In this document: positions 2,006 through 43,429 of the stretch, piece after piece
Position numbering within the stretch: the first letter of the stretch is position 1
How the letters are laid out: each line of letters begins with the position of its first letter
DNA from: Syntrophomonadaceae bacterium
Lineage (GTDB): Bacteria > Bacillota > Dethiobacteria > DTU022 > UBA8154
DNA: 64,000 nucleotides
NCBI GenBank assembly: GCA_003563895.1
Contig: PWTK01000112.1
Span: 158 to 64,157 of the forward strand
Reading direction: 5' to 3'
Position numbers and translations under genes: made by a program
Notes under the pieces: model-generated
What the model saw: only the letters and a program-made list of their open reading frames with translations
What the model was told of the DNA's origin: nothing
The model's database searches: none

Positions 2006-2236
2006 CTATTCCATTTCCTTTTTTCTTTTGATAAGCTTGTAAAGGGAGAGCACAAAAAAAACGATCATCGCCAGGTAAAAGAGGGGAGTCAGCAGCAGGA
2101 TGGGTGCGAGCAGCAGTGCGAGCAGCAGCATCCCCAGCCCTGCAAAGAACAGCAGGTAGTAGCGGAGTTCGCCCATGCGGGGCCAAAAAATGATCACAAG
2201 CAAAATGAGGATGGAAACGATAAGATCCATGCGCAA
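2006..2236 (-). CDS. Small hydrophobic membrane protein, unknown function
   Basis: 76-aa ORF, almost entirely hydrophobic (2-3 TM), with a KRKK tail. It starts 19 nt downstream of the MATE gene on the same strand. Confidence 0.4.
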   Translation of the reverse strand: MRMDLIVSILILLVIIFWPRMGELRYYLLFFAGLGMLLLALLLAPILLLTPLFYLAMIVFFVLSLYKLIKRKKEME

Positions 2237-2254
2237 GATCCACCTGCCGCGGGT

Positions 2255-3691: not shown

Positions 3692-3939
3692 GAAAATTAT
3701 TCCCCCCGATACTGGACAGCCGCCACTCTTACCATTATCCCACCCCCATCCCCTCCTGTCAACGCGGAAGAAAAGCCTTCTTCCCTTGACAAAGGAGGGC
3801 CGGGAAATATATTATTAACAGGTAAAATAATTGCATCGGTGAAATTTTTGCCCTGCTGATCATTGCTTCGCAAAAAACGCATCATACAAAGGAGGGACTT
3901 CCTTCGGGCTTTTTTTCAGGAAAAAGGCTCGACAATAAC

Positions 3940-6201: not shown

Positions 6202-6299
6202 TAAAGGTCCGATTGGGGTATCCGCTTAACCGGAGTTGTGATATACGATTGGCATGGATTACCCCCCCTGATGGCGCACACGACCCGAGGCCCGCAGGT

Positions 6300-6540
6300 G
6301 GGTTTCAGGCTTGGTTCACAGACCGATGCAGACCGCCTGGATTATCTGGACCGGCTGCGATGGACCAGGGGCTTCGTCTGCCAAACCTGCAGCCATAATG
6401 GGAGTTTGGGGCTGGGATATTACCACTCAGTCCGGTTGAGTGGATTCCCCAAAGGTGCGAAATACTCCTGCACGACAAGGCTGTTCAAATCGATGGAGTG
6501 CAGGCAGGGGGTTCTTTTCATCCGGGAGAGCCGGGAGCGC
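6300..6540 (+). pseudogene. Remnant of an IS1595-family transposase (N-terminal zinc-ribbon only)
   Basis: The ORF fragment reads DRLDYLDRLRWTRGFVCQTCSHNG...YSC, matching the C..YL..LRWP.GF.CP.CG pattern of the IS1595 transposase zinc-ribbon domain. No DDE domain follows. Confidence 0.4.
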
Positions 6541-15839: not shown

Positions 15840-17018
15840 TTACCGCTCAACAATCGTGGCGCAGCCCTGTCCTCCACCGATGCAGAGCGTGGTTAACCCC
15901 AGGGAAGCGTTCTGCCTGAGCATGCCATAGAGCAGTGTCACGAAAATGCGCGCTCCACTTGCCCCGATGGGGTGGCCCAGGGCAATGGCCCCGCCGGTCG
16001 GGTTGGTTTTTTCCGGGTCAAGGTTCAGCTCCCGCATCACGGAGATGGCCTGAGAGGCAAAGGCTTCGTTGGCCTCTACCAGGTCCATGTCTTCTATCGT
16101 AAGGCCCGCCTTCTGCAAAGCCTTGCGTGTGGCCGGGATGGGACCCGTTCCCATGATGCGCGGCTCTACCGCGGCAGAGGCATAGCTGCGAATGGCCGCC
16201 AGGGGCTTCAATCCTAACTCGCCGGCCTTTTCTTCCGACATTAAGACAACCGCCGCTGCACCGTCGTTGATCCCCGATGCGTTGCCGGCCGTGACGGTGC
16301 CGTCTTTCTTAAAGGCCGGCCGCAGCTTCTGCAGTGCTTCCAGGGTGGTGCCTCGCCTGGGATGTTCATCGGTGTCGAAAACGATGGGATCGCCCTTGCG
16401 CTGGGGGATGTTGACGGGGACGATTTCCTCCTTGAAAAGACCCTCATCGATGGCTTTAATGGCCCTTTCCTGGCTGGTCAGGGCAAACCGGTCCTGCTCT
16501 TCCCGGCTGATGCCGAAATCGGCAGCGATGTTTTCTGCCGTTATCCCCATATGGGTATCTCCAAAGGCGCACCAGAGGCCGTCTTTTATCATGCTGTCCA
16601 CCAACTGCGTGTCGCCCATCCTGCCGCCCCAACGGGCCGCCTCTGTCAGGTAAGGTGCCCTGCCCATGTTTTCCATCCCGCCGGCCACCACCACATCCGC
16701 ATCCCCCAGCATGATGGCCTGCACGCCCAGGTTGATCGCTTTCAGCCCTGAAGCGCAAACCTTGTTCACGGTATAAGCGGGAACAGTTACGTCCAGCCCT
16801 GCCTTTAAGGTAGATTGGCGGGCCGGATTCTGACCCAAACCCGCTTGCAGCACATTCCCCAGGATGACTTCCTCCACCAGGTCTTTGGAAACCCCCGCCC
16901 TGTCCAGCGCTTCCTTGACAACAATTGCTCCCAGTTCCGTAACCGGCACAGCATTCAGGGTTCCTCCAAAAGTGCCTACCGCGGTGCGAACAGCCGATAC
17001 AACTACTGCTTTTTTCAC
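15840..17018 (-). CDS. Acetyl-CoA C-acetyltransferase (thiolase)
   Basis: Active-site [11 protein letters not shown] and C-terminal CIGGGQG. I prefer the GTG start at 17018, 7 nt after GGGAGGG; the ORF track starts at 17036. Confidence 0.95.
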
Positions 17019-17064
17019 AATACAGCCCTCCCGCAACTTTTTTTAAAAGCTCATTTTAAAAGAT

Positions 17065-17185
17065 GCATTGTTGACAGCGCAATTGCTTTCAAATGCTTTT
17101 TTCTTGTTTCATTTCTTTTCTCATTTAAAATTCGGGTGGATAAAAGCTGTTTTCGCTGAACATCAACACTTGAATTAAAATGAGC
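17065..17185 (+). repeat. Family-A interspersed repeat (about 120 bp)
   Basis: Aligns to 41816-41932 (TTGACAGC...CAAATGCTTTTTTCTTGTTTCATTTCTTT...ATTCGGGNGGATAAAAGCTGTTTTCGCTGAACATCAACACTTGAATTAAAATGAG). Imperfect 9-bp terminal inverted repeat. Confidence 0.8.
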
Positions 17186-17575
17186 TTAATTAATGTTCCA
17201 GCCCGTGCTCCCCGCAAATAATCGGGACAGCACGGCCGGGTCTTCAATTCCATTCCTTAACCTTTTGAAATGCTCCCTCCCGGGCCGGCCCTGGGGGGCG
17301 CGGCCTTGAGGCCGGGTCGGCATCGCCCTGGGCGGACGCCCTTGCCGCCGTTCGGCGGCGCTGTTACCGGGGCAGGGTCCGCCGGACCACCCCTTCCTCC
17401 CTATGCGCGCCGGGCCTTTCAACCGCCCGAGAAGCACACCGTGGAGCCCGTGTTTTTCGCCGACAGGCTGGCGCTGGTGCCCTCGCTTATCCCCCCTTTT
17501 TGCGGAAACGCGGCAGTGCACCCGCCTTTGGCCAGGGCGCCGTTCTCCGCCGCTCCATCCCTTCGGCTGCCCGGG

Positions 17576-18046
17576 CTATTTTCCAAAACCCGTCCCTTCC
17601 TGCTCTTCTTTCAGTCCGACCACCGGCACCCCTCCGCTTTCAAAAAACTGGCGCGCCAACTCGTCGGGATAATCCTGCTGCAGCACAATTTTTTTCACGC
17701 CCGCGTTTACCAGCATGCGGGCACAGAGAGAACAGGGATGGTGGGTACAGTATAGAATAGCCCCCTGAATGGATATGCCGTGCAGGGCTGCCTGGATGAT
17801 GGCATTTTGCTCCGCATGCAGGCCGCGGCACAGCTCGTGGCGCTCGCCCGACGGTATTTTTTTCTCCTCGCGCAGGCACCCCGTCTCCAGGCAGTGAGGA
17901 AGCCCGCTCGGAGCCCCGTTATACCCGGTGGTGAGGAGTCTTTTCTCCTTGACCAGCACCGCGCCTACCTTTCTCCGCAGACAGGTCGAACGCCCCGCCA
18001 CCACGGCTGCAATTTCCATAAAATAGCTGTCCCAGGAAGGCCTCAC
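17576..18046 (-). CDS. comEB: dCMP deaminase (ComEB family)
   Basis: Zinc motifs HAEQNA and PCSLCA. The N-terminal 58 aa of the 214-aa ORF look non-coding, so I propose the GTG at 18046. The start is uncertain. Confidence 0.85.
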
Positions 18047-18216
18047 TGCACACCCACATCCCCGTCGCCCGGCAAAAAAGAGATGCCGGCAAAAATTTTC
18101 TAGAAGCGCAGCGCCGCCCGAGAACCTGCCAGCATGATTTGCTCCCCGGGCATTGGCGAGCCGGTTTTGCGTCACAAAAGGAAGCGGTTCACCTGGCGCT
18201 GAACCCCGGCCTCCGA

Positions 18217-18855
18217 TCAATCCGTCCCATAAAGCCTGTCGCCGGCATCCCCGAGCCCGGGCACAATAAAGGCGTCGGCGTTGAGTTGTTTGTCAATGTC
18301 TCCCAGGTACACTTCCACATCCGGGTGCATTTCGCACAACGCATCGATTCCCTCCCGGGCACCGATAAGGGTGATATACTTCACCCGGGGCGCCCCCCGC
18401 TCTTTCAAGGAGTTCACCGCGGCGATGGCCGTCCCACCGGTAGCGATCATGACATCCAGTATGAAGCACTCCCTCTGGTCCACGTCCGAAGGGAATTTGC
18501 GGAAGTACTCCACGGGAGAGAGGGTCAGTGGATCGCGGAAAAATCCCAGGTGCCCCACCTTGGCCATGGGCACCATGCGCAGCGCGGCATTCAACATGAC
18601 CAGGCCTGAACGCAGAATCGGGATAAAAAGGACATTGGTGTCGGAGAGCACCTTCCCCTTCCCCAGGCTGACCGGGGTCCTTACCTCGACGGTGGTCAGT
18701 TTAAAAGAGCGCGTGGCCTCGTAGAGGAGGAGGATGGTGATCTCCTCCACGATGCTTCGGAACTCCTTGGTAATGGTTTTTTCCTGCCTGCAGTACGTCA
18801 GCTTGTGCTGCACCAGGGGGTGCTGGATTTGAAAAACATTTTTCATTGCCGGCAT
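18217..18855 (-). CDS. upp: Uracil phosphoribosyltransferase
   Basis: 212 aa with a PRPP-binding loop ([11 protein letters not shown]); full-length match to the Upp family. Confidence 0.97.
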
Positions 18856-18880
18856 TCACCGCCTTTGCTGAAATGAAAAA

Positions 18881-20143
18881 TCAGTCTGCAGCGCCCTCGT
18901 AAAGAGGGAATTCCACGCAGAGCTCCTTAACCTCTTTTTTCACACCGGCCAATTCCTCGGGATCGTTTTTCCTCTCGATCGCCCGGTTGATCAGACCGGC
19001 TATGACCTTCATTTCATTTTCTTTCATCCCACGCGAAGTCAAGGCCGGCGTTCCCAGCCTGATGCCGCTGGTAACCAGCGGGCTGTTGGGATCATAGGGG
19101 ATGGCGTTCTTGTTCACGGTAATGCCCAGTTCGTCCAGCAAATTTTCAGCGTCCCTGCCGCTGATGTTTTTGCTCCGCAAATCCAGCAAAAGAAGGTGAT
19201 TGTCGGTCCCCCCCGAAACCAGGTCAAAGCCCATCTGCCGGAGGCTTTCGGCCAGCACACGGGCATTCCGGACCACCTGAAGTTGATAATCCCTAAACCC
19301 TTTATCGGCGGCCTCCTTGAAGGAAATCGCCTTCGCCGCAATGACATGCATCAGGGGGCCGCCCTGCAGGCCGGGGAAAACGGCCTTATCGACGGCCCTG
19401 GCGTATTCCCGGCGGCAGAGGATCAACCCGCCCCGGGGGCCCCTTAAGGTCTTGTGCGTGGTGCTGGTAATGAATTCGGCATGGGGCACAGGCGAAGGGT
19501 GCACCTCCGCCGCCACCAGCCCGGCGATGTGGGCCATATCGACCATCAGGGCCGCACCAACCTCCCTGGCAATGGAGGCGAAAGAGGCAAAATCGATGGT
19601 CCGCGGGTAAGCGCTGGCGCCGGCCACGATCAGCCTGGGCCTGATTTGCAGCGCAATTTTCCTGACCTCATCCATATCGATGTAGCCGCTGGCGGGATCC
19701 ACGCCGTAGCTGTGAAAATTGAAATACATCCCGGAAATGTTCACGGGGCTTCCGTGGGTCAGGTGCCCCCCGTGGGCCAGGTCCATGCCCAGGACCACAT
19801 CTCCCAGCTGCAGAAAGGCCAGGTAAACGGCTAGGTTGGCCACCGCCCCGGCATGGGGCTGGACATTGGCATGCTCGGCGTCGAACAGCTCCTGCGCCCT
19901 CGAGCGTGCCAGTTCCTCCACCACATCCACGTACTTGCAGCCGCCGTAAAACCGCTGCCCCGGGTACCCCTCGGCATACTTGTTGGTCAGCACCGAACCC
20001 TGGGCGTGGAGGACGGCTTCGCTGGTGAAATTTTCCGAGGCGATCATTTCCAGTTTCTGCTGCTGCCTGCGTTTTTCATTCTCTATTGCTTCCGCAATTT
20101 CCGGATCAATGCGGCGGAGCAGCTCGTTTTCCCTAACCGGCAT
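18881..20143 (-). CDS. glyA: Serine hydroxymethyltransferase
   Basis: 420 aa, PLP-Lys motif [14 protein letters not shown]. Confidence 0.98.
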
Positions 20144-20232
20144 ACCCCGGCCCGGCCTCCATGGACCCGGGCCTGCACCACCTTTCTGTATAAAATGAAG
20201 TATACGAGGACTATCGGAACATGTGGCCCTTA

Positions 20233-20700
20233 TCAGGGAGATATTTTTGTGCCGTTTCTTTCTTCCTCCATCTTTTTGATTTTTTCAAGCCGCTTGCTGT
20301 GCCGGCCTCCCTCAAAGGGAACGGTCAGAAAAACCTCAACGACCTCCCGGGCAAGCCCTTCCCCGATCACCCTCGCCCCGAGGGCCAGGATGTTGGCGTC
20401 GTTGTGGGCACGCGCACAGGCCGCCGAAAAAGTGTCGTGGCAGAGAGCAGCCCGTATCCCTTTCAGCTTGTTGGCGGCGATGGCTGTCCCGATGCCGGTG
20501 CCGCAAACGATGATTCCGCAATCGAATCGGCCTTCCTGGACGGCCCGCGCCGCCTTCAGGGCAAAGTCCGGGTAGTCCACCGCCTCCTTATCATCAAAAG
20601 CTCCGCAGTCTTCGACCTGGAAGCCTTTTTTTTGGAGATGTTTTCTGAGGAGTTCCTTGAGCAAAAACCCGGCGTGGTCCGAAGCCAGAACGATTCTCAT
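20233..20700 (-). CDS. rpiB: Ribose-5-phosphate isomerase B
   Basis: 155 aa, [12 protein letters not shown]...[10 protein letters not shown] (RpiB/LacAB family). Confidence 0.95.
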
Positions 20701-20774
20701 CCCTTGATTCCTCGCTTTGCGTTGTTATTAAATAATTCGCTTTTTTCGAAAGTTCTCCTGCTGCTTTCCCCCAT

Positions 20775-21266
20775 TCATGCAAGTGAATCTTTTAACTTGG
20801 GGATCGCCTGGCGCAATTTCATTTTTATTGTTTGGGCCGTTTCCCGGTACTTTTCCAGCCCGGCGCCATAAGGATCGGGGACATCGTCTCCATCATTCCC
20901 GCAATATTCACCCAGCGTCCATGTTTTGCCCGCCGCTTCCGGATAGCGGAGTAAAATGAGGCGTCTTTGTTCTCCGGTCATGGTCAAAATAACCGCGGCT
21001 TCCTGGATGAGATCCTTTTTGATCGTTTGCGCCCGGTGATAGGGGAGTTTCGCCCCTTCTTCTGCCAGTACCGTTAACGCGTTCTTTGAGGCGGGCATCT
21101 CCTCCACCGCGTCCGTACCGGCCGATGCTGCCTCTACTCGGGGGTTCCTTTGGTTCTCTTCCGCACCGCCCATTTCACGCCACATTTTTTGGAACAGCCC
21201 CTGGGCCATTACACTGCGGCACGTGTTTCCGCTGCAGACAAACAGGATTCGCAGCTGCTCCCTCAT
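20775..21266 (-). CDS. ywlE: Low-molecular-weight protein arginine/tyrosine phosphatase (YwlE-like)
   Basis: CSGNTCRS P-loop (C-x5-R-S). The ATG at 21266 (MREQLRILFVCSGN) avoids overlap with tsaC; the ORF track starts at 21473. Confidence 0.85.
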   Translation of the reverse strand: MREQLRILFVCSGNTCRSVMAQGLFQKMWREMGGAEENQRNPRVEAASAGTDAVEEMPASKNALTVLAEEGAKLPYHRAQTIKKDLIQEAAVILTMTGEQRRLILLRYPEAAGKTWTLGEYCGNDGDDVPDPYGAGLEKYRETAQTIKMKLRQAIPKLKDSLA

Positions 21267-21454
21267 CCAGCTCACCTCCTCGCCGGTTTTTGCTTGTCGC
21301 TTCGTCAGCGCGAAGAAGCAGGCACCGCGGCAGGCCGGGCCGGGATTTGCAAAAAGGGAAAACGGCCCGGCCACCTTCGCCGAGGCAGGCGCGGGAATTA
21401 TCCCCTCCCGGGGAAAGGCTCCGGGAAAACGGCACCGTTTCGCAGGAAACCCCT

Positions 21455-22570
21455 TTATCCCTCCGCATCCCATCGGAGGATCCCGCTGGCGGCTTTACGC
21501 AGCCTGTTCATGATGGCTTTCCCTATTTCGCGGTCATCAAACCCTTCGGCCACGATGGCTTCAACGCCCTGGGCATCCAACCCCCGCAGAGCGCCAAAAA
21601 GTCGCTCTGCCAGGCGCTCCGGCTCTGCCCGGGAACCCAGCACGACAATGCACGTGCCGGCATCTTCCAAAAGAGCAGGGGGCAGCGTTTCATACATTTC
21701 CCGGGAAATAAGCAAGCCCAATTTTTTGCCCTGCCCCAAAAAACTTTCGCCCAGCGCTGCGATTTGCTGCCGCTGGTATTCCTCTTTCCCCTCCACCAAA
21801 AGGAGCGGGGACCGGGTTGCGTAGTGCCTGTATTTCATCCCCGGGGAAAGGGGGGCATCAATCGCATCCCCCGTTCCTGCAGGCCCTTTTCCCTCCGCCG
21901 TGGCATCCAGGACTTCCGCTTTCAGTTCCGCGCGCAGCGCTTCAAGGGTTACGCCTCCGGGGCGAAGCAAAACGGGGGGCTCGGAAAGCAGGCTCAAAAC
22001 GGTGGACTCCAAACCCAGCGGGCAGGGCCCGCCGTCCAGTACGGCATCGATTTTCCCTGCCATATCGTCCAAAACGTGGGCGGCCCTGGTGGGGCTGGGG
22101 CGGCCGGACAGGTTGGCGCTGGGCGCGGCCACGGGCACCCCTGCCGCTTTGATCAGCTCCAGGGCCAGCGGATGCGCCGGCACGCGCACGGCCACGGAAG
22201 AGAGGCCGGCCGTTGTGATATACGGGACCACCTTTTTTTTGGGCAGCACCAGCGTCAGGGGGCCCGGCCAAAAGCGGCGCGCCAGTATTTCGAAGCTGGG
22301 CGGGGCTCCGCTCACAACCCGTTTCACCTCTTCCGGCCCGGCCAGATGCACAATGAGGGGGTTATCAGGAGGTCTGCCCTTGGCCTGAAAGATTTTTCCT
22401 ACGGCCCCGGGGTTTAACGCATCCGCTCCCAGCCCATAAACGGTTTCCGTGGGGAAAGCCACCAGTCCACCTCTTCGCAAAATACCCGCCGCACAGGAAA
22501 GGGCTTGCTTTTCCCTTCCCGCTTCCAGCGCGTTGAGGAGTTTTGTTCCCGAAATCGTTTTCCAGACCAC
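21455..22570 (-). CDS. tsaC: L-threonylcarbamoyladenylate synthase (TsaC/Sua5 long form)
   Basis: 371 aa. GGLVAFPTETVYGLGADA YrdC domain plus Sua5 C-terminal domain. Confidence 0.9.
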   Translation of the reverse strand: MVWKTISGTKLLNALEAGREKQALSCAAGILRRGGLVAFPTETVYGLGADALNPGAVGKIFQAKGRPPDNPLIVHLAGPEEVKRVVSGAPPSFEILARRFWPGPLTLVLPKKKVVPYITTAGLSSVAVRVPAHPLALELIKAAGVPVAAPSANLSGRPSPTRAAHVLDDMAGKIDAVLDGGPCPLGLESTVLSLLSEPPVLLRPGGVTLEALRAELKAEVLDATAEGKGPAGTGDAIDAPLSPGMKYRHYATRSPLLLVEGKEEYQRQQIAALGESFLGQGKKLGLLISREMYETLPPALLEDAGTCIVVLGSRAEPERLAERLFGALRGLDAQGVEAIVAEGFDDREIGKAIMNRLRKAASGILRWDAEG

Positions 22571-22699
22571 CGCTTGTTCAGCCTCCCGTTTTCTGCCACA
22601 AGTATATCATACTTCTTCTGTTCCCCCCAAACCTCCTGCGAAAGCGGGCATCAATGCGGCCGGCTTTTCAGGAATTGATCGTTTCACCTTTTTTGATAT

Positions 22700-22708
22700 C
22701 TGGTATAA
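22700..22708 (+). promoter_or_regulatory. Extended -10 box (TGGTATAAT) upstream of larB
   Basis: TGGTATAAT lies 38 nt before the larB ATG. The -35 is weak. Confidence 0.45.
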
Positions 22709-22745
22709 TAAGAAAAACACTGCCGCACTCGAAAGGAGAGGAACC

Positions 22746-23528
22746 ATGCATCAGCATACCCTCCGCCGGCTGCTGGAAGAGCTCCGCCAGGGGAACCTTT
22801 CGGTGGAAAAAGCGCTGGAACACCTGCGGAACCTGCCCTATGAAGACCTGGGGTTTGCCAAGGTAGATCACCACCGCCCGCTGCGCAAGGGATTCCCCGA
22901 AGTGATCTACTGCCCCGGCAAAACGACGGCACAGGTTTTAAGAATCATGGAGGAACTCGTTTCCTATCCGGGAAATATCCTGGCCACCCGGGCCGAAGAA
23001 GCGCTTTTTGCAGAAGTGTCAAAAATATTCCCGGAAGCCCGCTACAACCCTCTTTCCCGCAGCATTGCCATCTGCAGGGACGACCGGATCTACGGATACG
23101 GCACCATCCTGGTGATTTCCGCAGGGACCTCAGACATCCCGGTAGCGGAGGAAGCCTATGTCACCTGCGAGATCATGGGCAACAGGGTGGAAAAAATTTA
23201 TGATGTAGGCGTAGCCGGCATCCACCGTCTGCTGAGCCATGCGGACAAAATTCACTAGGCCAGCGCCATTATCTGTGTGGCCGGCATGGAAGGCGCCCTG
23301 CCCAGCGTGGTGGGAGGGCTTGCGGGATGCCCCATCATCGCAGTCCCTACCAGTATCGGCTATGGGGCTCACCTGGAGGGGATCGCCCCGCTGTTGACCA
23401 TGCTTAACAGTTGTGCCGCGGGGGTTTCCGTGGTCAACATCGACAACGGTTTCGGGGCTGGGTACAGCGCCGCCCTCATCAACCGGGCCCACAGCTGTCC
23501 CCAATGTGGAGGTGAACAGGGCGCATGA
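22746..23528 (+). pseudogene. larB: LarB (nickel-pincer cofactor carboxylase/hydrolase) interrupted by one in-frame TAG at 23256-23258
   Basis: ATG at 22746 after AAAGGAGAGG. GFPEVIYCPGKT and SAGTSDIPVAEEA lie before the TAG; [13 protein letters not shown] and NIDNGFGAG lie after it in the same frame (23277-23256 = 21 nt). Confidence 0.8.
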
Positions 23529-24826
23529 CGAAAAAAGAGCTCTACCTGGAATGCTCCGCCGGGGCCGCAGGGAACATGATCGCGGCCGCCCTCCTCGACT
23601 GCGGCCTTTCCCTGGAAAGCTGGAAAAAGCGGCTCCAGCAACTGCCGCTGGGCGGCTATGAGCTCCTGGCCCACAGGGTCGACAAGCAGGGCATCAGCTC
23701 CCTGCAGGTCAAATTCAAAGCCGAAAAGAACCAGCCGGAGCGCCGCCTCCCTGAAATCGAAGGGATCATTCGAAACGCCCCCCTCTCTTCCTTCGTCCGC
23801 GAAAAAAGCATTTCCGCCTTTCGGCTGCTGGCCCGGGCCGAAGCGAGGGTCCACGGAGTAGCTGTGGACCAGGTGCATTTTCACGAATTAGGCGCCGTGG
23901 ACGCCATACTGGATATTGTGGGCAGCCTTTTAGCCCTGGAAATGCTGGAGATCGACCGCACCAGCGCTTCGGCGCTGCCGCTGGGTAAGGGGTGGGTAGA
24001 TACAAGCCACGGCCGCCTTCCCCTACCTGCGCCCGCTACAGCGGAAATCCTGAAGGAATGTTCCATCCCCTGCTACGGCATCCCGGTAGAGGGAGAAACG
24101 GTCACCCCCACAGGGGCAGCCCTGCTGGGCACCATTAGCCTGGATTTTATCAATTTCCCGCCGCTGCGCATCGAAGCCATTGGCTGCGGTGCGGGAGAAA
24201 GGGAACACGAATATCCAAACATTCTGCGGGCCTTCCTGGGAACTTCCCTGTCGCCCGGCTGGCCCGCTTCAGGAGGGAAGGGGTGGGAATGGAGGGAGAC
24301 GGAGAGAGAAGGGACCGGAGAAAACGGTTCGACAGGGTCCGAGAGGACCGGCAGCCCGGGAACAGGCCGACTCACGGCAGAACCGCTGACAATACTGGAG
24401 GCCAACATCGATGATCTCAACCCGGAGATCTACGAACACGTGATGGAGCAACTTTTCAATGAAGGTGCGCTGGATGCCTACCTCACCCCCATACAAATGA
24501 AAAAAAACAGGCCGGCCATCAAGATCACCGTCCTGTCGCATCCCCATGATGCTCATCGGCTGGGGCAGGTGCTGCTCCGGGAAACTACCACCCTGGGCTA
24601 CAGGAGATACTATGCCGAAAAAAACATGCTTCCCCGCACGCGCTTCACCGTGGAAACGCCCTGGGGACCGGTTTACGTCAAGGCCGGGGGGGAACCGCCT
24701 CACTATGAAAACATCGCCCCCGAATACGGGGACTGCCTCAAGATCGCCCGGGAGCAGGGAGTGCCCCTGAAAAAAATATACCAGACCGTATGGAAAATAC
24801 TGGGCGGCATGGCCAGCAGCGGCTGA
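23525..24826 (+). CDS. larC: LarC (nickel insertion protein for the pincer cofactor), single-ORF form
   Basis: 433 aa, N-terminus [17 protein letters not shown] overlap with larB. Low-complexity Gly/Glu/Thr linker at about residues 240-285. Confidence 0.9.
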
Positions 24827-24956
24827 GTGCGGGCTGAAACAAACGCCGCACCGGCAAATGAGGTGGTATTTCTCCGGCGTTTTTACATCGCCCGGCCGGC
24901 CTGAAGCGAAAAGGCACCAGCCCTGCCCGCCGGGAATGGGTGCAGACGGAAGCGTC

Positions 24957-25751
24957 CTAATCCTTTTCCTCCAGGGACGAGTTCAGATCCAGGGTAACGT
25001 AGGTAAAACCCCGCTTTTGCAGGGCAATAGCAATTTCCTGGCGTTTTTCGACGGCTTTCTCCAGCATATGGCTCTCCGTTTCCAGGCGGGCAATCTCTCC
25101 GTGAAAACGCACCTTTAGTTTTTCGAAACCCAGGGAGCGCAGGTATTCCTCCGAGTGTTCGACCTGTTCCAGCTTGGGGAGGGTAAGGGGCTCGCCGTAA
25201 GGGAAGCGGGTTGCCAGGCAGGGCGCAGCGGGCTTCTTCCAGGTCGGTAGGCCTTCCTTCCGGGAAAGGGCGCGGATCTCCTTTTTCCTCAGGCCGACTT
25301 CCTGCAGGGGAGAGCGCACATTGTATTCAAGCGCCGCCTTCATCCCCGGGCGCATCCTCTCCTCGTCATCCCGGTTGCTGCCGTCAAGCACCAGCTGCAA
25401 ACCCTCTTCCCGGGCCAGCCTGCTGAAACGGCCGTAAAGCATCTGCCGGCAGAGGTAGCACCGATGAGGGGGGTTCGCCCTGAATTCCGCGTTCTCCAGC
25501 TCTTTGCTCTCCAGCAGCCGATGCTCCGCCCCCAGCTGCCGGGCATACTCTTTGGCCTGCTCGATCTCCTTCAGGGGATGGAGCGGGGAGATTGCCGTTA
25601 CCGCCAAAACCCTTCCCTGCACCGCCCCTAACGCCTTGGCCAGCAGGTACGTGCTGTCCACTCCGCCGGAAAAAGCCACCAAAACGTCTTTCATCTGCCC
25701 CAATATGCTTATTAACTGCTTTTCTTTTTCCTGCGCTGCATTTACGTCCAT
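24957..25751 (-). CDS. larE: LarE (ATP-dependent sacrificial sulfur transferase, PP-loop ATPase)
   Basis: PP-loop AFSGGVDS and Cys loop PCLATRFPYG. ATG at 25751 after AAGGAAGGGA; the ORF track starts at 25841. Confidence 0.9.
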   Translation of the reverse strand: MDVNAAQEKEKQLISILGQMKDVLVAFSGGVDSTYLLAKALGAVQGRVLAVTAISPLHPLKEIEQAKEYARQLGAEHRLLESKELENAEFRANPPHRCYLCRQMLYGRFSRLAREEGLQLVLDGSNRDDEERMRPGMKAALEYNVRSPLQEVGLRKKEIRALSRKEGLPTWKKPAAPCLATRFPYGEPLTLPKLEQVEHSEEYLRSLGFEKLKVRFHGEIARLETESHMLEKAVEKRQEIAIALQKRGFTYVTLDLNSSLEEKD

Positions 25752-25861
25752 CTCTGGGAAACTCCCTTCCTTAAGACTGAATATTTTGAATGTGTGCTGA
25801 GAAAAAGCGGCCAAACCCGGGGGACCGTCCGCGGCCGGCACTCCACATGATGCCCCGGCGA

Positions 25862-26359
25862 TTAGTGCGGGTCATCTCCGCCTTCTTCTCCGCTTTCCGG
25901 TCGTGCATTTGCTCCGCCGGGCCACTTCTTCTCCAAAGCCTGGCAGCGGCTGCAGTACCCGTAAAAATGCAGGTTGTGGTTGATGATGTGAAACCGGTAT
26001 TGCTGCTCGATGGTTTCTTCCAGCTGGTGCAGCAGGTCCTCTTCCACTTCGAAAATCTCGTAACAATGCACGCACACCAGGTGATGATGGTGATGGTCTT
26101 CCAGGCCCACTCCCCGCTGGATCTCGTAACGGTTTCGCCCGTCCCCAAAGTGCATCTTGTGCAGCAACCCCAGTTCTTCCAGCAGATCCAGGGTGCGGTA
26201 AATGGTTGCCAGGCCGATTTCCGCCCCCTTTTCCCTGCTGAACTGAAATACTTCCTCGGCGCTCAGGTGTTTTTCCCTGTGCTCCAGGAAAATTTGCAAT
26301 ATCATTTTTCGCTGTGGGGTAAGGCGGTGCTCTTTAAAGTGCCTTTCGATTTCCCGCAT
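25862..26359 (-). CDS. Fur-family metalloregulator
   Basis: HTH region (GLATIYRTLDLLEELGL), HHHHH, and C-x2-C pairs (CVHC, CSRC). ATG at 26359. Confidence 0.85.
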   Translation of the reverse strand: MREIERHFKEHRLTPQRKMILQIFLEHREKHLSAEEVFQFSREKGAEIGLATIYRTLDLLEELGLLHKMHFGDGRNRYEIQRGVGLEDHHHHHLVCVHCYEIFEVEEDLLHQLEETIEQQYRFHIINHNLHFYGYCSRCQALEKKWPGGANARPESGEEGGDDPH

Positions 26360-26412
26360 TTTTCTTTCCACAGAACAACCCCCTTGTTGGGCAACACATC
26401 CATCAGAGGGCC

Positions 26413-28017
26413 TCAATGCTCACCCAGGACAATCTGGGCCAGGTTAGTCGCGTGGTCGGCAATCCTTTCCAGATTGCTCAGTATATCCAGGTAAATGACT
26501 CCGGCAGCGGGTAAGCATTCGCCCCTGGTCACCCGGTCGATGTGGTTGTTGCGCAGCTGCCTTTCCATACTGTCCACCACATCGTCTTCCAGCACGACTT
26601 TCCGGGCCAGCTCCTCGTTTTCTTCGATAAAGGCCTTGATGGCCTTTTCCATCATTTCGTCCACCTTTTCGTAGAGGGAGTAGACCTCCCTTTTCGCGGT
26701 ATCCGTAATATTCAATTTCTCATCCAGGGCCATCTCCGCCAGCTCCAGCACGTTCTGTGAGTGGTCCCCTATACGCTCCAGGTCGTTGGCCGCGCTCATC
26801 AAACCTGAAACCACCGCGGTCTGCTGGCGGGTCAGGGAGTGCTGGGATAGTTCCTGCAAAAAGAGATAGATCTCCGTCTCCAGGCCGTCGATGAGCTCTT
26901 CTTTTTGCATCACCTGGTTGATCTTTTTGCGGTCATTTTTGTGAAAGACGTCTATGGCCTCGCCCACCATTTCCTTGGCCACGGTGGCCATACGCGCCAT
27001 CTCCTGCCGGGCAGCCTTAATCCCGGCTTCCGGAGCCTTGAGGATCCTCTTGTCCAGGTACTTGGGGCCGAGTTCGACCGCCACTTCTTCCCCGGGGACC
27101 AGGATTTCTACCAGGCGCACGAAAAGCTTGAAAAAGGGGAAAAACACCAGCGTGTTCAGCACGTTGAAAAAGGTATGAGCGTTCGCCGTCTGCCGGGCAA
27201 CGGTGTAACCGGTATCGACGACCAAATCGGTAAAAGGGCCCAGAAAGATCAGGATCACTCCGACCCCGAGCAGGTTGAACAGGATATGGGCAGCGGCGGC
27301 CCGCCTGGCCGACAGGGAAGTCCCCAGCCCGGCGATAATTACGGTGATGCAGGTGCCGACATTTGTGCCCAGGATGAGCGGAATGGCCGCTTCCAGGGTT
27401 ACCAGTTCCTGCAGCGTCAGCGCAATGATGATCCCGGTTACCCCACTGCTGCTTTGAATGGCGGCAGTAAAAAGGGAGGAAAACAAAATCGCCAGCAGGG
27501 GATTCTCGGCGAACCGCACCAGCAGCTCCAAAAACATTGGGCTTTCCCGCAGGGGGTGCATCGCCTCGGACATGGTCATCAAGCCCAAAAAAAGCAGTCC
27601 AAACCCCAGAATTGCCTGTCCCAGGTAACGGTAAAGCTTGCGCCGGCCGAAAAAATTTAACAGTCCGCCCACGCCGATGGCGGGGAGGGCCAGGAAGTCC
27701 AGCTCAAAAGAGATGACCTGGGCTGTGATGGTGGTCCCGATGTTGGCGCCCATGATGGCACCGACCGCCTGAGAGAGATTCATCAGGCCGGCGTTAACAA
27801 AACCCACCAGCATCACGGTGGTGGTGCTGCTGCTCTGCACCAGGACCGTCACTACGATACCCGTCAGCACCCCGATCGCCGGCTTGGTGGTTAAAATCTC
27901 CAGGATACGCCTGAGTCTGTCCCCCGCCACTTTCTGCATACCTGAAGCCATCATTTGGAGGCCGAAGAGAAAAAGCCCCAACCCCCCCAGCATCCCAATG
28001 ACGACAAAAATGTCCAT
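26413..28017 (-). CDS. Na+/phosphate cotransporter family protein with C-terminal PhoU-like domain
   Basis: 534 aa. NptA-type repeats (QSSSTTTVM, QSSSGVTGI) plus two PhoU repeats. Confidence 0.9.
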   Translation of the reverse strand: MDIFVVIGMLGGLGLFLFGLQMMASGMQKVAGDRLRRILEILTTKPAIGVLTGIVVTVLVQSSSTTTVMLVGFVNAGLMNLSQAVGAIMGANIGTTITAQVISFELDFLALPAIGVGGLLNFFGRRKLYRYLGQAILGFGLLFLGLMTMSEAMHPLRESPMFLELLVRFAENPLLAILFSSLFTAAIQSSSGVTGIIIALTLQELVTLEAAIPLILGTNVGTCITVIIAGLGTSLSARRAAAAHILFNLLGVGVILIFLGPFTDLVVDTGYTVARQTANAHTFFNVLNTLVFFPFFKLFVRLVEILVPGEEVAVELGPKYLDKRILKAPEAGIKAARQEMARMATVAKEMVGEAIDVFHKNDRKKINQVMQKEELIDGLETEIYLFLQELSQHSLTRQQTAVVSGLMSAANDLERIGDHSQNVLELAEMALDEKLNITDTAKREVYSLYEKVDEMMEKAIKAFIEENEELARKVVLEDDVVDSMERQLRNNHIDRVTRGECLPAAGVIYLDILSNLERIADHATNLAQIVLGEH

Positions 28018-28396
28018 TACTACATAGTCCTCCTGCGTTATATCTGATGAACCTAATGAGTAATTCTCTATTTATGAGGCATATCCTTTTTCAGAAACCC
28101 ACCCCGTGCGTATTCCCACAATAAAAGTTAGTGAATTATTTCACTATATGATGTAAACTTTTTTTTAGTTTAGCACATTTAACGCCCGATGAAAATAATG
28201 AAAAACGATGAAAAACGATAAACACAATACCGAATTTTACAAAGGGCTCGCCTGGCACTCCTTCCCAAGACATGTGGGCAGAACCTTCTGCAGCCATGGG
28301 CAAACCGCACGCACCCCAACCCGCTTAAGGAGAACCCCTGTTAATTGTCAAAGCTGGGGCTGAATCGCCGCATGATTGATGCGCAAAGTAAAAAAC

Positions 28397-28548
28397 CAGG
28401 CTATCAAAGATGCTCAGGATGACAATGAAAGAAATCCCGCAAAAAAAGTGGTTTAAAAGGTCACGCTTACAAAAAGGCCTTGATCTGCTAAAAAGCTGTA
28501 TTTGGGGGCCACTCAACAAGAATTCCCTGAGTTAAGTTGCCCGTCATG
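28397..28548 (+). repeat. Family-C interspersed repeat, copy C1 (about 150 bp)
   Basis: CAGGCTATC...CTCAGGATGACAATGAAAGAAATCCCGC...GGTCACGCTTACAAAAAGGCCTTGATCTGCTAAAAAGCTGTATTTGGG...CAACAAGAATTCCCTGAGTTAAG...TCATG. Aligns to 29615-29767, 41659-41810 and 62567-62851. Confidence 0.9.
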
Positions 28549-29614: not shown

Positions 29615-29767
29615 CAGGCTATCGGGCTTGCTCAGGATGACAATGAAAGAAATCCCGCAAAAAAAGAGGTTTTAAAATGTCACACTTACAAAAAGGCCTT
29701 GATCTGCTAAAAAGCTGTATTTTAGGGCCACTCAACAAGAATTCCCTGAGTTAAGCTGATAATCATG
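29615..29767 (+). repeat. Family-C interspersed repeat, copy C2
   Basis: Closest relative of C1. They share CAGGCTATC, GAAATCCCGC and GGCCTTGATCTGCTAAAAAGCTG, where C3 and C4 differ. Confidence 0.9.
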
Positions 29768-29968
29768 TTGATTTTTTTGAAACCGCCACTTCGAAATCCA
29801 GCATCCAGCGCAACGGTCCAACAGAGCCCGGCTCCGGAAGCGGCGGACGGCAGGGAAAAGCAGGCCCGCTGTTCGCCCTTATTTTCATGGTCCCTTCAGG
29901 CCTTTCGGGTATGCCGCTGGGAAATCTCACGAATGCGTGACCTTGCTTTTCCAGGGCGCAGGCGGCCG

Positions 29969-30862
29969 TCAGCCCGCCGGCAGTGCCCGGTCCAGGGTGA
30001 ATAAAAGCACCCGTTCCGTGCCGGCATAATCCTTCTTAATGGCTACTTCCCATTCCGCCGGGATTTCCTTCGCCAGGGAGATGACAGGCACGGCTTGGCC
30101 CTGGCCGATTTCCAGGGCCAGCAGGCCGGGGACAAAAAGCCTGCCCTGGATGCCGGAAATAATCGTGCGGAAAGCGTCAAGGCCGTCTTCCCCGCCGTAG
30201 AGCGCACCGGGGGGTTCTTTCTTGACTTCCTGGGAAAGGTGGGCGAGCATCTCCAGGGAAATATAGGGGGGGTTTGAAATCACCGCATGGAAACGCTCCC
30301 GCACCGGTACGGCCTCCCAAAAGCTGCCGCCCAGCAGCCGCAGCCGTTCCGATACGCCGTGCTGCTCCGCATTCCTGGCGGCAAGGCGCAGGGCCTCCTT
30401 TTCCAGGTCTACCGCCGTCACTTCAGCCCCGGGAAGGTAGTAAGCCAGCGAAATGGCGATATTTCCGCAGCCCGTGCCCAGATCCAGCAGCCGCAGCCCT
30501 TCCCCGCGGGAAGAATCGGAGTAATGGTCTTCAACCCACTTGATGGTCCACTCCACCAGGTGCTCCGTTTCCGGCCGCGGGATCAGCACCCCCGGATGAA
30601 CAATAAAGGAAAGGCCCATGAATTCCTTCCGGCCGGTCACATATGCCAGTGGCTCCCCCTGTGCCCTTCTCTCCAAAAGGTTCCAGTACTGCTGGCGGCC
30701 CAACTCCGACAGCCGCTCCTCCCCCCGGCAATAGAGATATATCCTTTCCCGCTTCAGCAAAAAAGAAAGGAGAAGCTCCGCTTCACTGCGTGGATACTCC
30801 AGTCCGCAGCTGCGCAAAAAATAAGCAGCCTCACGCAGGGCCTGCTTGATGTTTATTTCCAT
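29969..30862 (-). CDS. prmC: Release-factor glutamine N5-methyltransferase
   Basis: 297 aa, SAM motif LDLGTGCG and NPPY (VISNPPYIS). Downstream of prfA. Confidence 0.92.
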   Translation of the reverse strand: MEINIKQALREAAYFLRSCGLEYPRSEAELLLSFLLKRERIYLYCRGEERLSELGRQQYWNLLERRAQGEPLAYVTGRKEFMGLSFIVHPGVLIPRPETEHLVEWTIKWVEDHYSDSSRGEGLRLLDLGTGCGNIAISLAYYLPGAEVTAVDLEKEALRLAARNAEQHGVSERLRLLGGSFWEAVPVRERFHAVISNPPYISLEMLAHLSQEVKKEPPGALYGGEDGLDAFRTIISGIQGRLFVPGLLALEIGQGQAVPVISLAKEIPAEWEVAIKKDYAGTERVLLFTLDRALPAG

Positions 30863-30941
30863 CGTCTACACCCGCACAGTTGATGGTTGCTTCTTCCGGG
30901 TTTTTCGGACGGGAGTTTCGACCCCCTTACTGCAGGCACCG

Positions 30942-32009
30942 CTACAGTGCTTCCTTAAGTTGCTCGGCCCTCTCATGGGCCGTTAAGGCTTCGATCAATT
31001 CCTCCAGCTCCCCTTCCAACACCCGGTCGAGCTTGTGCAGCGTCAGCCCGATGCGGTGGTCCGTCACCCGGTTCTGCGGATAATTGTAGGTGCGTATCCG
31101 CTCGCTGCGGTCCCCTGTACCCACCTGGCTGCGCCTCTTTTCCGCCTGTTCTTTTTCCTGCTCTGCAATGAGCCGGTCCAGAAGCCTGGCCCGCAGCACC
31201 CTCATCGCCTTCTCGCGGTTTTTGAGCTGGGATTTTTCGTCCTGGCAGGAGACGACCGTATTGGTCGGGTGGTGGGTGATGCGAACCGCAGAATGGGTGG
31301 TGTTCACGCTCTGACCGCCGGGGCCTGTAGCACAAAAGGTATCGACCCTCAGCTCCTGCGGGTTAATGGAGAGTTCCACTTCTTCGGCCTCGGGCAGCAC
31401 GGCGACCGTTGCCGTCGAGGTATGGATGCGCCCCCCGGACTCGGTGGTGGGAATGCGCTGCACGCGGTGAACCCCGCTTTCAAATTTTAACCGGCTGTAG
31501 GCGCCTCTGCCCTTGATGGAAAACACGATTTCTTTGACCCCGCCCATGTCGGTCGGGTGGGAATCCAGGATTTCTGTGATCCACTGCCTGTTTTCGCTGT
31601 AGCGCAGGTATATGCGCAGCAGGTTGGCGGCAAAAAGAGCCGCCTCTTCCCCGCCGGCGCCGGCCCTGATCTCCATGATCACGTCTTTTTCATCGTTTGG
31701 ATCCCGGGGTATCAGCAACCGTTTCAGCTGCTCCTCTATTTTTTCTTTTTGCTCCTGCAGCTCGGCGATCTCCTCCTGCAGGTACGCCTGCATCTCTTCA
31801 TCCTGCTTTTCCTTCAAGAGTTCCCCGGCGGCCTCAATATCCTGCGTTACCTTTTTCAACCGCCGGTATGTCTCGACCGTTTGTGAAAGGTCCGCATGCT
31901 CCATGGTGAGTTTCTTCCATTTTTCCTGGTCCTTCATCACTTCCGGATCGCTCAGCTTCTCTTCCAGGAGCTCGTAATGCTCTTCGATGGCTTTTAATTT
32001 ATCCCACAT
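30942..32009 (-). CDS. prfA: Peptide chain release factor 1
   Basis: 355 aa, GGQ motif ([10 protein letters not shown]) and RF1-type PTT tripeptide region ([14 protein letters not shown]). Confidence 0.98.
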
Positions 32010-32950
32010 TCCGCGACCTGTTCACCTCCTTCAACCGGCTCCTCCGCTGCACGGCTGTCGCCTGCGGGGGAATGTTCCTCCTCGGTCGGCAGAACCGCTT
32101 TCAGGGCCCTGAGGGCCACTTCCATCTGTTCATCGCCCGGCACCCGGGTGGTGAGCTTCTGCAGCCACAAGCCCGGCTGCGAAATGAGCCGCGTCAGGAA
32201 ATTGTCTTTAAGCCCTGCAAATCGGATGGCTTCGTAAGAAATGCCGGCCACCAGGGGCAGCAGTGAAAGCCGGAGCAGGATGCGCTGCCAGACCCCCGGC
32301 CAGCCAAAAAAGGAAAACAGCAGGATGCTGGTCACCATGACAATCAGCAGGAAACTGGTCCCGCACCGCCTGTGCTGGGTGCTGAAGCGGCGGGCATTCT
32401 CCACGGTCAGAGGAACACCGGACTCATAGCAGGCTATCGCCCGGTGTTCGGCCCCGTGATACTCGAAAACCCGGCTCACTTCCCCCCAGCGCGATATCAG
32501 GTAAACATAGCCCAAAAACAGCCCCAATCGGATGCCGCCTTCCCCCAAGTTTAATAAAAAGGGGGCTTCCACGTTCTGGCGGAGAAAATTCATGAGCACC
32601 GTGGGCAGCAGGATAAACAGCCCGATCCCGGCCGCCAGGGAAATAACCAGCGTCAGGGGCAGTTCCCACCCCTTCAGCTCTTCCTCTTCTTCCTCCAGCA
32701 CCTCCTCGGCGGAGGTGGAAAGCGACCGAAAACCCAGGATGAGGGCTTCTACAAAAGCCAGCATTCCCCGCAGCAGAGGCCATTTTAAAATGGGATAGCG
32801 CTCTCCCAGGGATTGGAAATCCTTCTGCCTGACCACGATGCTGCCTTCACCTTTATTCAAGGCGATGGCGACCGCAGAGCGGTTGCGCATCATCACCCCT
32901 TCGATCACGGCCTGCCCGCCCAAGTGGACGTTTGGATTGTTTTTCTTCAT
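31994..32950 (-). CDS. DUF1385 (YqhQ-like) membrane protein
   Basis: [14 protein letters not shown]-terminus and [13 protein letters not shown] motif. ATG at 32950; the ORF track starts at 32995. Confidence 0.8.
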
Positions 32951-33009
32951 TTCGGACACCTGTCCCCGTTTTCGTGCGCTGCACAAGAGCAGCACCGATT
33001 TTCTCCTGG

Positions 33010-33038
33010 AAAAAAACAGGGCTTCGAGAAGCCCTGTT
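33010..33038 (-). terminator. Rho-independent terminator of rpmE
   Basis: Minus strand reads CAGGGCU-UCUCGA-AGCCCUG followed by UUUUUUU. Confidence 0.85.
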
Positions 33039-33060
33039 CGCAGTCGTTTAATCTTCCTGG

Positions 33061-33261
33061 CTATTCCCGGCCGTATTTGCGCTTGAATCTCTCGACACGC
33101 CCACCGCTGTCCACGAACTTCTGTTTACCGGTGAAAAAAGGATGGCAGTTGGAGCAAATCTCTACCTTCAATTCTTCCCTGGTGGATCCGGCTTCAAACG
33201 TGGTGCCGCAGGCACATCGAATAGTGGTTTTCACATACTCGGGGTGGATCTCCTTTTTCAT
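33061..33261 (-). CDS. rpmE: 50S ribosomal protein L31 (Zn-ribbon type A)
   Basis: 66 aa, MKKEIHPEY..., C-x-C ... C-x2-C. Confidence 0.97.
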
Positions 33262-33393
33262 CTCGGGCTCACCTCTTTCCTTCCTTGCTGGTTCCCTTCA
33301 TCGGTTTAATGCACGATATATCATAACACAAAAGCAAGGGGCTTGGCAACACCAAATAGCGCGCGCAGAATGGGGGTCTATCCCGGCAACCCG

Positions 33394-34638
33394 TTACAGG
33401 TTATGCAGGTTTTTTAAGAAAGTGGCGTTGTCTTTGGTCCTTTTCAGCCTTTCAATGAAGGCTTCCAGGAATTCGGAGGAGGAGGTGATATTCATGGAGC
33501 GGCGGAGGGCCCACATAAGCTCAAGCGTGTCTTTGTCCAACAGCAGTTCCTCCCGGCGGGTGCCTGAGCGCGTGATGTCGATGGCCGGGAAGATCCTCCG
33601 CTCGGCCAGCTTGCGGTCCAGGTGGAGCTCCATGTTGCCCGTTCCCTTGAACTCTTCGTAAATCACATCGTCCATGCGGCTGCCGGTTTCCACCAGCGTG
33701 GTCCCCAGGATGGTTAAGCTGCCCCCCTCTTCGATGTTGCGGGCCGCCCCGAAAAAGCGTTTCGGTTTGTGAAAGGCGGCCGGATCAATGCCGCCGGAAA
33801 GCGTCCTGCCGCTGGGTGGGTTCACCAGGTTGTAAGCGCGGGTCAGGCGGGTGATGCTGTCCAAAAGGATGACTACGTGCAGTTCCTGTTCCACCATCCG
33901 CTGGGCCCGTTCCAGCACCAATTCGGCCAGCCGGATGTGGTTTTCCGGTTTCTCGTCAAAGGTAGAGCTGAGCACCTCTCCTTCCACCGAACGCTGCATA
34001 TCCGTAACCTCCTCCGGCCTTTCGTCGATCAAAAGGACGATCAGCCGCAGAAACGGGTAATTTCTCGTCAGGCTGTTGGCGATCATTTTCAGCAAAAACG
34101 TTTTCCCCGCCTTGGGAGGAGAAACGATCAGCCCGCGCTGCCCCTTGCCGATGGGCATCATCAAGTCGATAATGCGGGTGGCGTACTCTCCGGAGTCCTT
34201 CTCCAGCTTCAGCTGTTCATCGGGATGGATGGGGGTTAACTCGCTAAAAGGGGGACGTTGAGCGGCCTTTTCCGGGTCTGCGTTGTTCACCAATTCCACG
34301 TGCAGCAGTGCGTAATAGCGCTCGTTTTCCTTCGGTGGGCGCACCCTCCCAGAAACCAGGTCGCCGGTGCGCAGCCCAAAACGGCGGATCTGCGAAGCGG
34401 AAATGTAGATGTCGTCGTCGTGGGGGAGGTAGTTCACCCGGCGGAGAAAGCCGTACCCGTCCGGCATGATCTCCAGCACGCCTTCCGCAAAAATAAAGCC
34501 CTCCGACTCGGTCTCCTGCTTGAGTATCGCATAGATGAGATCTTTTTTCTTCATGGAGCTTACGCCCTTCAGTTCAACTTCCTTCGCCATGCGCTGCAGC
34601 TCTTCCAGGTTCATGGTTTCCAGTTCGCCCAGATTCAT
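33394..34638 (-). CDS. rho: Transcription termination factor Rho
   Basis: Walker A PPKAGKT and an N-terminal RNA-binding domain. The ATG at 34638 ([14 protein letters not shown]) follows GGGGGA; the ORF track starts at 34689. Confidence 0.97.
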
Positions 34639-42253: not shown

Positions 42254-43429
42254 CTATTGGTTTTCCACCTCGTCCAGGCAGGACCTGATGTAGTTTTCCA
42301 TCTGCTGGAATTCAATCAGGAAGGCGTCGTGGCCGTGGGGAGACTGAAGCTCTTCGTAGCGGGCATCCACCCCGCAGCGCCTCATTTCAACCCCCAGGCC
42401 GCGCACCTCCCGGGGATAGAAAAGAATATCCGAGCTGATCCCCATCAAAAATACTTTGGAGCGGATGCGGCGGAGCGCCCCTTCGAAGGAGGTACAGCCC
42501 CTTCCCAGATCGTGAAGATCCATGGCCTTGCTCAGATACAGGTAGGTGTTCGGATCGAAGCGGCGGGTCAATTTCTCGCCCTGGTGGTCCAGGTAGCTTT
42601 CCACCGCGAACGGCTCAAAAAAGGCAAAGGGGTGGGTCTCTGCGGCCCGCTGCAGTGCCCTGCCGAAACGCCTCTCAAAGGATTCGTTGCTGCGGTAAGT
42701 GATGGTGGCAATAATCCGGGCCAGTGACAGCCCCTCGTGGGGAAAATCTCTGCCGTAATAACGGCCCTTCTGCCAGGCCGGGTCGCTCATGATCGCCCTT
42801 CGAGCCGCCTGGTTAAAGGCTATGCCGATGGGCGAAAAGCGGCCTGAACAGGCGACAGCGATGGCGCTTCCCACCATGTGGGGATACATTGCGGCCCATT
42901 CCAGCGCCTGCATTCCCCCCATGGAACCGCCTGCTGCGGCAACCAGTTCTTTCACCCCCAGGTGATCCAGCAATCTCTTCTGGGCCCGCACCATGTCCTT
43001 GATGGTCACCACCGGGAAATTCATGCCGTAGTGCTGCCCCCTTTTGGGGTCAAGGGAGGAGGGCCCGGTTGTCCCGTAACAACCTCCAAGCAGGTTGCTG
43101 CATATGACGAAGTAGCGGTCCGTATCAAAGGCCCTGCCGGGGCCTACCAGCGGCTCCCACCAGCCCCTTTCTTTTTCCGGCCGGGGCGGCTCGCCCACCA
43201 GCGACCCACCCGTCAGTGCATGGGCGATATAGATGGCATTGTTTCCTGCAGAAGAAAGCCTGCCGTAAGTCTGGTAATTGATTGTCACGGGGCCCAGGGG
43301 CACCCCGCTTTCCAGGAAAAAATGATCCGGCGGTTCGGCAAAACGGAATGTTCTCTCCCCCTCATAAGCGGGATAGAGGCTTTCCAGTTGGGCCGGGAAA
43401 AACGGGTCCCTCTCGTTCAGCATGTTCAC
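42254..43429 (-). CDS. metX: Homoserine O-acetyltransferase
   Basis: 391 aa. Alpha/beta-hydrolase nucleophile motif GGSMGGMQALEW. TAG stop. Confidence 0.93.
   Translation of the reverse strand: MNMLNERDPFFPAQLESLYPAYEGERTFRFAEPPDHFFLESGVPLGPVTINYQTYGRLSSAGNNAIYIAHALTGGSLVGEPPRPEKERGWWEPLVGPGRAFDTDRYFVICSNLLGGCYGTTGPSSLDPKRGQHYGMNFPVVTIKDMVRAQKRLLDHLGVKELVAAAGGSMGGMQALEWAAMYPHMVGSAIAVACSGRFSPIGIAFNQAARRAIMSDPAWQKGRYYGRDFPHEGLSLARIIATITYRSNESFERRFGRALQRAAETHPFAFFEPFAVESYLDHQGEKLTRRFDPNTYLYLSKAMDLHDLGRGCTSFEGALRRIRSKVFLMGISSDILFYPREVRGLGVEMRRCGVDARYEELQSPHGHDAFLIEFQQMENYIRSCLDEVENQ

Follow-up and report, generated by a model that had tools for sequence, protein, structure and literature searches.

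The larB gene of this Syntrophomonadaceae genome is interrupted by a single in-frame TAG that is private to one assembly and arises from C>A at position 23257, the middle base of a serine codon (TCG). Positions are those of the window, by which we mean the whole 64,000-nucleotide stretch of DNA analyzed. Given that a single base differs and that three near-identical assemblies read TCG at the site, the TAG is an ordinary error or a very young mutation, not a recoded codon. In either case, whether an artifact or a nascent pseudogene, larB here is an ordinary gene that carries a private nonsense base. The features on which this reading rests are as follows.

22734..22741, + strand: Shine-Dalgarno-like AGGAGAGG, separated from the larB ATG by 4 nt, read off the sequence
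22746..23528, + strand: larB frame, 260 codons plus a TGA stop, with one TAG interruption (NF033503 and 7MJ0 alignment)
23256..23258, + strand: in-frame TAG at codon 171, with A at its second position (23257), where three near-identical contigs have C (TCG, Ser)
23259..23525, + strand: larB 3' of the TAG, 89 codons, identical to the 260-aa uninterrupted LarB P0122 and including Cys223
23525..24826, + strand: larC, one uninterrupted ORF with LarC1 and LarC2 domains (TIGR00299, 199 bits; NF052512, 140 bits)
24957..25841, − strand: larE, with a TAG stop at 24957-24959 (TIGR00268, 304 bits)

The larB frame begins with the ATG at 22746 and stays open past the TAG to the TGA at 23526-23528. The read-through product matched the LarB model NF033503 at 294 bits (cut-off, 175) over residues 40-247, in a single stretch spanning the TAG, and residues 5-250 aligned with LarB of L. 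plantarum (PDB 7MJ0). PF00731 is recorded for the uninterrupted form, and the fold class is the PurE-like AIRC fold (NCBIfam NF033503). By these matches the gene is an ordinary larB, predicted to encode pyridinium-3,5-biscarboxylic acid mononucleotide synthase, which catalyzes the first step in the synthesis of the nickel-pincer nucleotide cofactor. A previous sequence-only reading had described a larB split by a single in-frame TAG with both halves conserved, and the one-stretch profile match bears this out. The C-terminal motifs that it quoted are present, and the larB TGA does overlap the larC ATG at 23525 (ATGA), as it had stated. Its placement of the TAG within a conserved frame also stands, but one correction is needed: what is lost is a variable-loop serine rather than a residue at a conserved position. 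Codon 171 falls between the HRL helix and the strand leading into AGMEGAL. The aligned residue differs among homologues (Ser, Q/R/K/D, or Gly), and position 171 is therefore regarded as variable; it would not be a site at which an unusual residue is selected. Cys223 (TGT, 23412-23414), which follows the TAG, aligns with Cys221 of L. plantarum LarB in 7MJ0. Cys221, part of an MLNSC motif, is presumably the catalytic cysteine. The 170-residue truncated product is without Cys223.

The genome containing the window is a 1.82-Mb, 114-contig metagenome-assembled genome (MAG) with an estimated completeness of 79.6%. In three parts of the window (444-6363, 16064-28440, and 29726-33685), foreign contigs were 99.9 to 100% identical to the MAG over 1.7 to 7 kb each, and several showed no difference from it at all. 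These contigs come from JGI metagenome 3300000362 and from four sequencing runs (SRR490150, SRR490155, SRR13089370, and SRR16248217). By these matches, the population is almost clonal across several samples and sequencing runs. The 170-aa N-terminal product shares a 90%-identity protein cluster with P0122, a 260-aa protein recorded from JGI and Logan assemblies. P0122 has Ser at 171 and otherwise, over 259 residues, does not differ from the LarB of the window. It is carried by three contigs.

L105, 6187 bp, Logan SRR13089370: carries P0122 and reads TCG
L106, 2505 bp, JGI metagenome 3300000362: carries P0122 and reads TCG
L107, 2406 bp, Logan SRR490150: carries P0122 and reads TCG

These contigs were 99.96 to 99.97% identical to the window over 2.4 to 6.2 kb, and TCG for TAG was the only difference common to all three. 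Besides 23257, L106 and L107 showed no difference from the window; L105 showed one more, private to itself, at 24544. Over 22.2 kb and eight foreign contigs, 23257 was the only site at which the window stood alone against several assemblies. Thus, the uninterrupted frame that characterizes LarB fails in the window, at codon 171, and holds in the three near-identical contigs. The sequence-only reading had proposed comparing larB among sister strains and had held that reads with a sense codon at 23256 would make the TAG a sequencing error. The near-identical assemblies carry the uninterrupted gene with TCG at the site, a result that comes from independently assembled contigs and not from raw reads. 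Since Logan and JGI contigs lose rare variants, they show that the C allele exists, but not that those samples lack the A allele.

The remainder of the pathway is intact, with only one base changed. larC overlaps larB, larE lies on the opposite strand 130 bp downstream, and neither gene is damaged. larC is one ORF of 433 codons that is matched by both the LarC1 and the LarC2 model; no frameshift is needed, unlike in the larC1/larC2 arrangement of L. plantarum. An intact larA homologue, which the sequence-only reading had suggested looking for, was found on contig C48: this LarA-family client gene scored 500 bits against NF052525, just below the 540-bit cut-off, and covered profile positions 4-425 of 426. 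No second larB was found in the genome. Because nothing but one base has been altered, the event must be either extremely recent or not real.

Between these two outcomes, we slightly favor the second. It is somewhat more probable than even that the A at 23257 does not represent the organism's population and is instead a consensus or sequencing artifact, or else a minority variant that entered the assembly. The change from C to A, which turns Ser171 (TCG) into TAG in this one assembly, is of a class typical of oxidized guanine. Under this explanation, the real gene would be the uninterrupted 260-codon form of the other assemblies. That larB is ordinary is favored by 23257 being the sole window-only site against several assemblies, together with the lack of decay in larC, larE, and the LarA-family gene. 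An artifact is disfavored by the 65-kb length of the contig, which implies decent coverage, and at such coverage a damage artifact rarely wins the consensus. We infer an artifact rather than a real young allele, giving the former a little over half of the weight and the latter most of the rest.

If the A is real, it would be a very young nonsense mutation in the sampled population, and larB would be a nascent pseudogene. A 170-residue product from which the catalytic cysteine is missing could not make the cofactor precursor, leaving LarC, LarE, and the LarA-family enzyme without substrate or cofactor. We put this possibility at clearly less than an even chance, though well within reach. It is consistent with the A being the consensus base deposited for a 65-kb contig and with Cys223 falling after the stop. 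However, a decaying gene sits uneasily with the absence of any further substitution in larB, larC, larE, or their flanks relative to the three other assemblies, and with an intact LarA-family client gene. In addition, the 170-aa product is recorded from this MAG only, whereas the full-length product is recorded from three samples.

Other interrupted genes in the assembly bear on the same choice. We scanned for split genes, defined by an in-frame stop with the same frame scoring best of the six on both sides, and removed ordinary adjacent genes. The scan yielded larB, a UvrD-like helicase, a 553-aa protein, an ADP-ribosylhydrolase-like gene, and two TGA cases. The ADP-ribosylhydrolase-like gene lies outside the window (C9, reverse-complement index 19680, 0-based; locus L121), and its best match was NF041672 at 315 bits, below the 490-bit cut-off. 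It is interrupted by a TAA in the MAG, where a Logan contig from SRR16248217 reads TAC (Tyr), the sole difference in 1.7 kb. Like the larB TAG, this TAA is therefore a C>A stop private to this assembly. Also outside the window, the UvrD/AddA-like helicase-nuclease of about 1084 codons (C9, reverse-complement index 6893, 0-based) is interrupted by a TAG within UvrD_C; its homologues, at 48% identity, are uninterrupted and have Glu at the stop column (YARAL-E-xRGIPY). In the 553-aa protein, which has no Pfam match and lies outside the window as well (C100, reverse-complement index 5126, 0-based), an in-frame TAG occupies a column where homologues at 66 to 82% identity, uninterrupted and about 546 to 559 aa long, have mostly Glu or else Ala. 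Searches for a near-identical copy of the helicase and of the 553-aa protein found none. Both TAGs fit a GAG>TAG change (G>T), with the ancestral codons taken from homologues only.

TAG thus accounts for three of the four non-selenocysteine (non-Sec) in-frame stops in the genome, a proportion that is unremarkable. From the genome's codon usage, 46% of one-step nonsense products are expected to be TAG and 45% to arise via G:C>T:A, and so the excess of TAG among broken genes needs no recoding. All four stops are G:C>T:A changes (two confirmed and two inferred), with a probability of about 0.02 to 0.04 under simple mutation spectra, which is mildly unusual only. C>A (G:C>T:A) is the class of change typical of oxidized guanine, whether as library damage or as real mutagenesis. 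The excess of G:C>T:A stops speaks against an artifact to the extent that it could equally reflect oxidative mutagenesis in vivo. Likewise, on the view that larB is a nascent pseudogene, the further private nonsense changes of the MAG (at least one, plus two likely ones, all in accessory genes) could stem from relaxed selection or from a lineage-specific bias toward oxidative-damage mutations. As regards a mutator lineage, an idea that we dropped, Fpg/MutM was not found in the incomplete (79.6%) assembly, which would be compatible with a real mutation, and MutY is intact, which speaks against one.

Comparison with more distant relatives gave no precedent for a stop at this position. Orthologues of larB were detected in 33 of 40 related genomes at 54 to 69% identity, and none of the 33 has a stop at the codon-171 column; the stops reported inside relatives' larB genes are natural C-terminal stops at the end of the alignment. 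The column holds Q, R, K, or D in the relatives and Gly in L. plantarum LarB, and an 83%-identical homologue (P0002) has Ser. Neither the 33 relatives nor about 7,900 homologues include a larB split at codon 171. Two separately translated polypeptides, which the sequence-only reading had allowed might be the norm among orthologues, were accordingly not seen in any of them.

This absence weighs against the proposal that LarB is made as two polypeptides, residues 1-170 plus a re-initiated C-terminal piece, or that low-level near-cognate read-through of UAG suffices. Potential restart codons do exist: an in-frame GTG (23277) and ATG (23286) follow the stop by 21 to 30 nt, the database calls an 80-aa ORF from the ATG, and the ATGA coupling to larC is kept. 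However, no Shine-Dalgarno motif precedes either the GTG at 23277 or the ATG at 23286, re-initiation would remove the strand ASAIICVAG of the PurE-like core, and near-identical strains have a single uninterrupted gene. Read-through is disfavored by the RNA as well: the 110 nt from the TAG folded like shuffled sequences (z-score, 0.10), giving no sign of a stimulatory structure, and no Rfam element matched after the TAG at E ≤ 1. We rejected a split, two-polypeptide LarB because no split orthologue and no internal ribosome-binding site were found, and we consider this explanation, read-through included, very improbable. Programmed read-through was rejected because the TAG is absent from orthologues and no unusual RNA structure follows it.

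The genome was also searched for the means to decode UAG as an amino acid. Two genes of the window bear on how TAG is used.

30942..32009, − strand: prfA, encoding release factor 1, which reads UAG and UAA; intact, with TAG as its own stop (TIGR00019, 528 bits; cut-off, 423)
42254..43429, − strand: metX, with a genuine TAG stop (NF001209, 451 bits, profile positions 19-377 of 381)

The sequence-only reading had cited the TAG of metX as a genuine stop, and coverage of the profile to position 377 of 381 agrees with this. Within the window, TAG closes larE, prfA, metX, and others, and genome-wide it closes about 19% of gene-like ORFs (361 of 1,888). Coding-like sequence followed 10% of TAG stops, compared with 13% for TGA and 14% for TAA, so TAG showed no excess. 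The same reading had suggested a search for pylTSBCD, and none of the pyrrolysine (Pyl) machinery sought turned up in this 79.6%-complete assembly, where absence is not proof. The best PylS score was 16.5 bits (cut-off, 178), in a search whose control, Methanosarcina acetivorans, scored above the cut-off; the best PylD score was 19.6 bits (cut-off, 150). ARAGORN found no tRNA with a CUA anticodon among an incomplete set of 29 tRNAs (including tRNA-Sec) and one tmRNA. Four MttB-family homologues contained no in-frame stop.

Decoding of the TAG by a pyrrolysyl-tRNA or another amber suppressor, with full-length LarB made and the machinery residing in the unassembled 20% of the genome, would draw on the incomplete state of the assembly, on the predominance of TAG among the non-Sec in-frame stops, and on the relatives. 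Of 41 relatives, 5 had a PylS above the curated cut-off: four in the same family (G001, G006, G012, and G013) and one in the same order (G035). With PylS in 4 of 24 same-family genomes, pyrrolysine decoding appears to be patchily distributed in the family. Against these points stand the TCG codon of the three near-identical assemblies and the sense codons of all orthologues, the sub-threshold PylS and PylD scores, the missing CUA tRNA, the uninterrupted MttB homologues, and the intact release factor 1. The routine use of TAG as a stop, the location of residue 171 in a variable loop, and the share of TAG expected from codon usage point the same way. We rejected pyrrolysine and other recoding on the grounds that the TAG is unconserved even in near-identical strains, that PylS, PylD, and a CUA tRNA were not found, that MttB genes lack stops, and that release factor 1 is intact. 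Because near-identical strains have TCG in place of TAG, this is not a programmed codon, and we conclude that nothing decodes it; we rate amber decoding as even less probable than two polypeptides. Of the four options that the sequence-only reading had listed, a recent nonsense mutation and a sequencing error survive, whereas pyrrolysine or other recoding and stop-codon read-through do not. One variant would have pylTSBCD in the unassembled fifth of the genome and a Pyl-tRNA that partly suppresses the private TAGs of larB, the UvrD-like helicase, and the 553-aa protein. Its probability is very low in our estimate, although if true it would mean that amber suppression buffers new nonsense mutations in a natural population.

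Taken together, these results make the larB TAG a clean negative: it resembles a recoding candidate in an anaerobic member of the Bacillota, yet it comes down to a single base private to one assembly. The database record with CDSs of 170 and 80 aa is best read as one larB with a premature stop or a base error, and the ability to make the nickel-pincer cofactor should probably still be credited to the organism.

The same genome provides a useful contrast between a private stop, that of larB, and a conserved stop associated with a hairpin. A CoA-transferase alpha-subunit-like gene outside the window (G000:C81:11580-12386, − strand; locus L124:1501-2307) has a TGA at residue 103, in the context EHT-x-PSLLAGLQAGAMG. 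Orthologues at 58 to 68% identity from three further genera have a TGA in exactly that column, and JGI and Logan assemblies also contain the 102-aa N-terminal fragment. The stop is followed, at a distance of about 19 nt, by a conserved hairpin (GGCUCCA-GGC-UGGAGCC); tRNA-Sec is encoded on contig C23, and distant paralogues have Asn at the TGA column. This gene is probably a selenoprotein gene with a genuine recoding pattern. In a peroxiredoxin-like gene, also outside the window (G000:C89, + strand, index 1365), a TGA falls inside an FTFV-x-PTE motif that we take to be the position of the peroxidatic Cys; this TGA presumably encodes Sec, as in the known type of Sec-peroxiredoxin. Like larB, the CoA-transferase-like gene looks split by one in-frame stop and is annotated as fragments in the database. 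Its stop, however, is kept across four genera and in other assemblies and is accompanied by a hairpin and a tRNA-Sec, whereas the larB TAG has none of these.

The likeness to the pyrrolysine genes mtmB, mtbB, and mttB of Pyl-decoding Bacillota and Methanosarcina is confined to an in-frame TAG amid well-conserved coding sequence. In those genes the TAG marks a catalytic position and is shared by orthologues, and pylTSBCD is present; in contrast, the larB TAG is private to one assembly and lies in a variable loop of a genome in which no Pyl genes or tRNA were found. The closest counterpart is the uninterrupted LarB P0122 of the same or nearly the same organism, which is identical in 259 of 260 codons and in flanking DNA and differs in having TCG (Ser) where codon 171 here is TAG. 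Among characterized proteins, LarB of L. plantarum (7MJ0, 7MJ1, 7MJ2, and 8SOQ) is of equal length and aligns end to end (residues 5-250 against 3-248; E = 1e-69). The two have in common the motif NIDNGFGA and one 18-residue motif, Cys221 there corresponds to Cys223 here, and in both organisms larB adjoins larC and larE. Codon 171 differs, encoding Gly in L. plantarum LarB and being TAG in the window, and so does larC: L. plantarum has a larC1/larC2 arrangement, whereas here a single uninterrupted ORF contains the two LarC domains.
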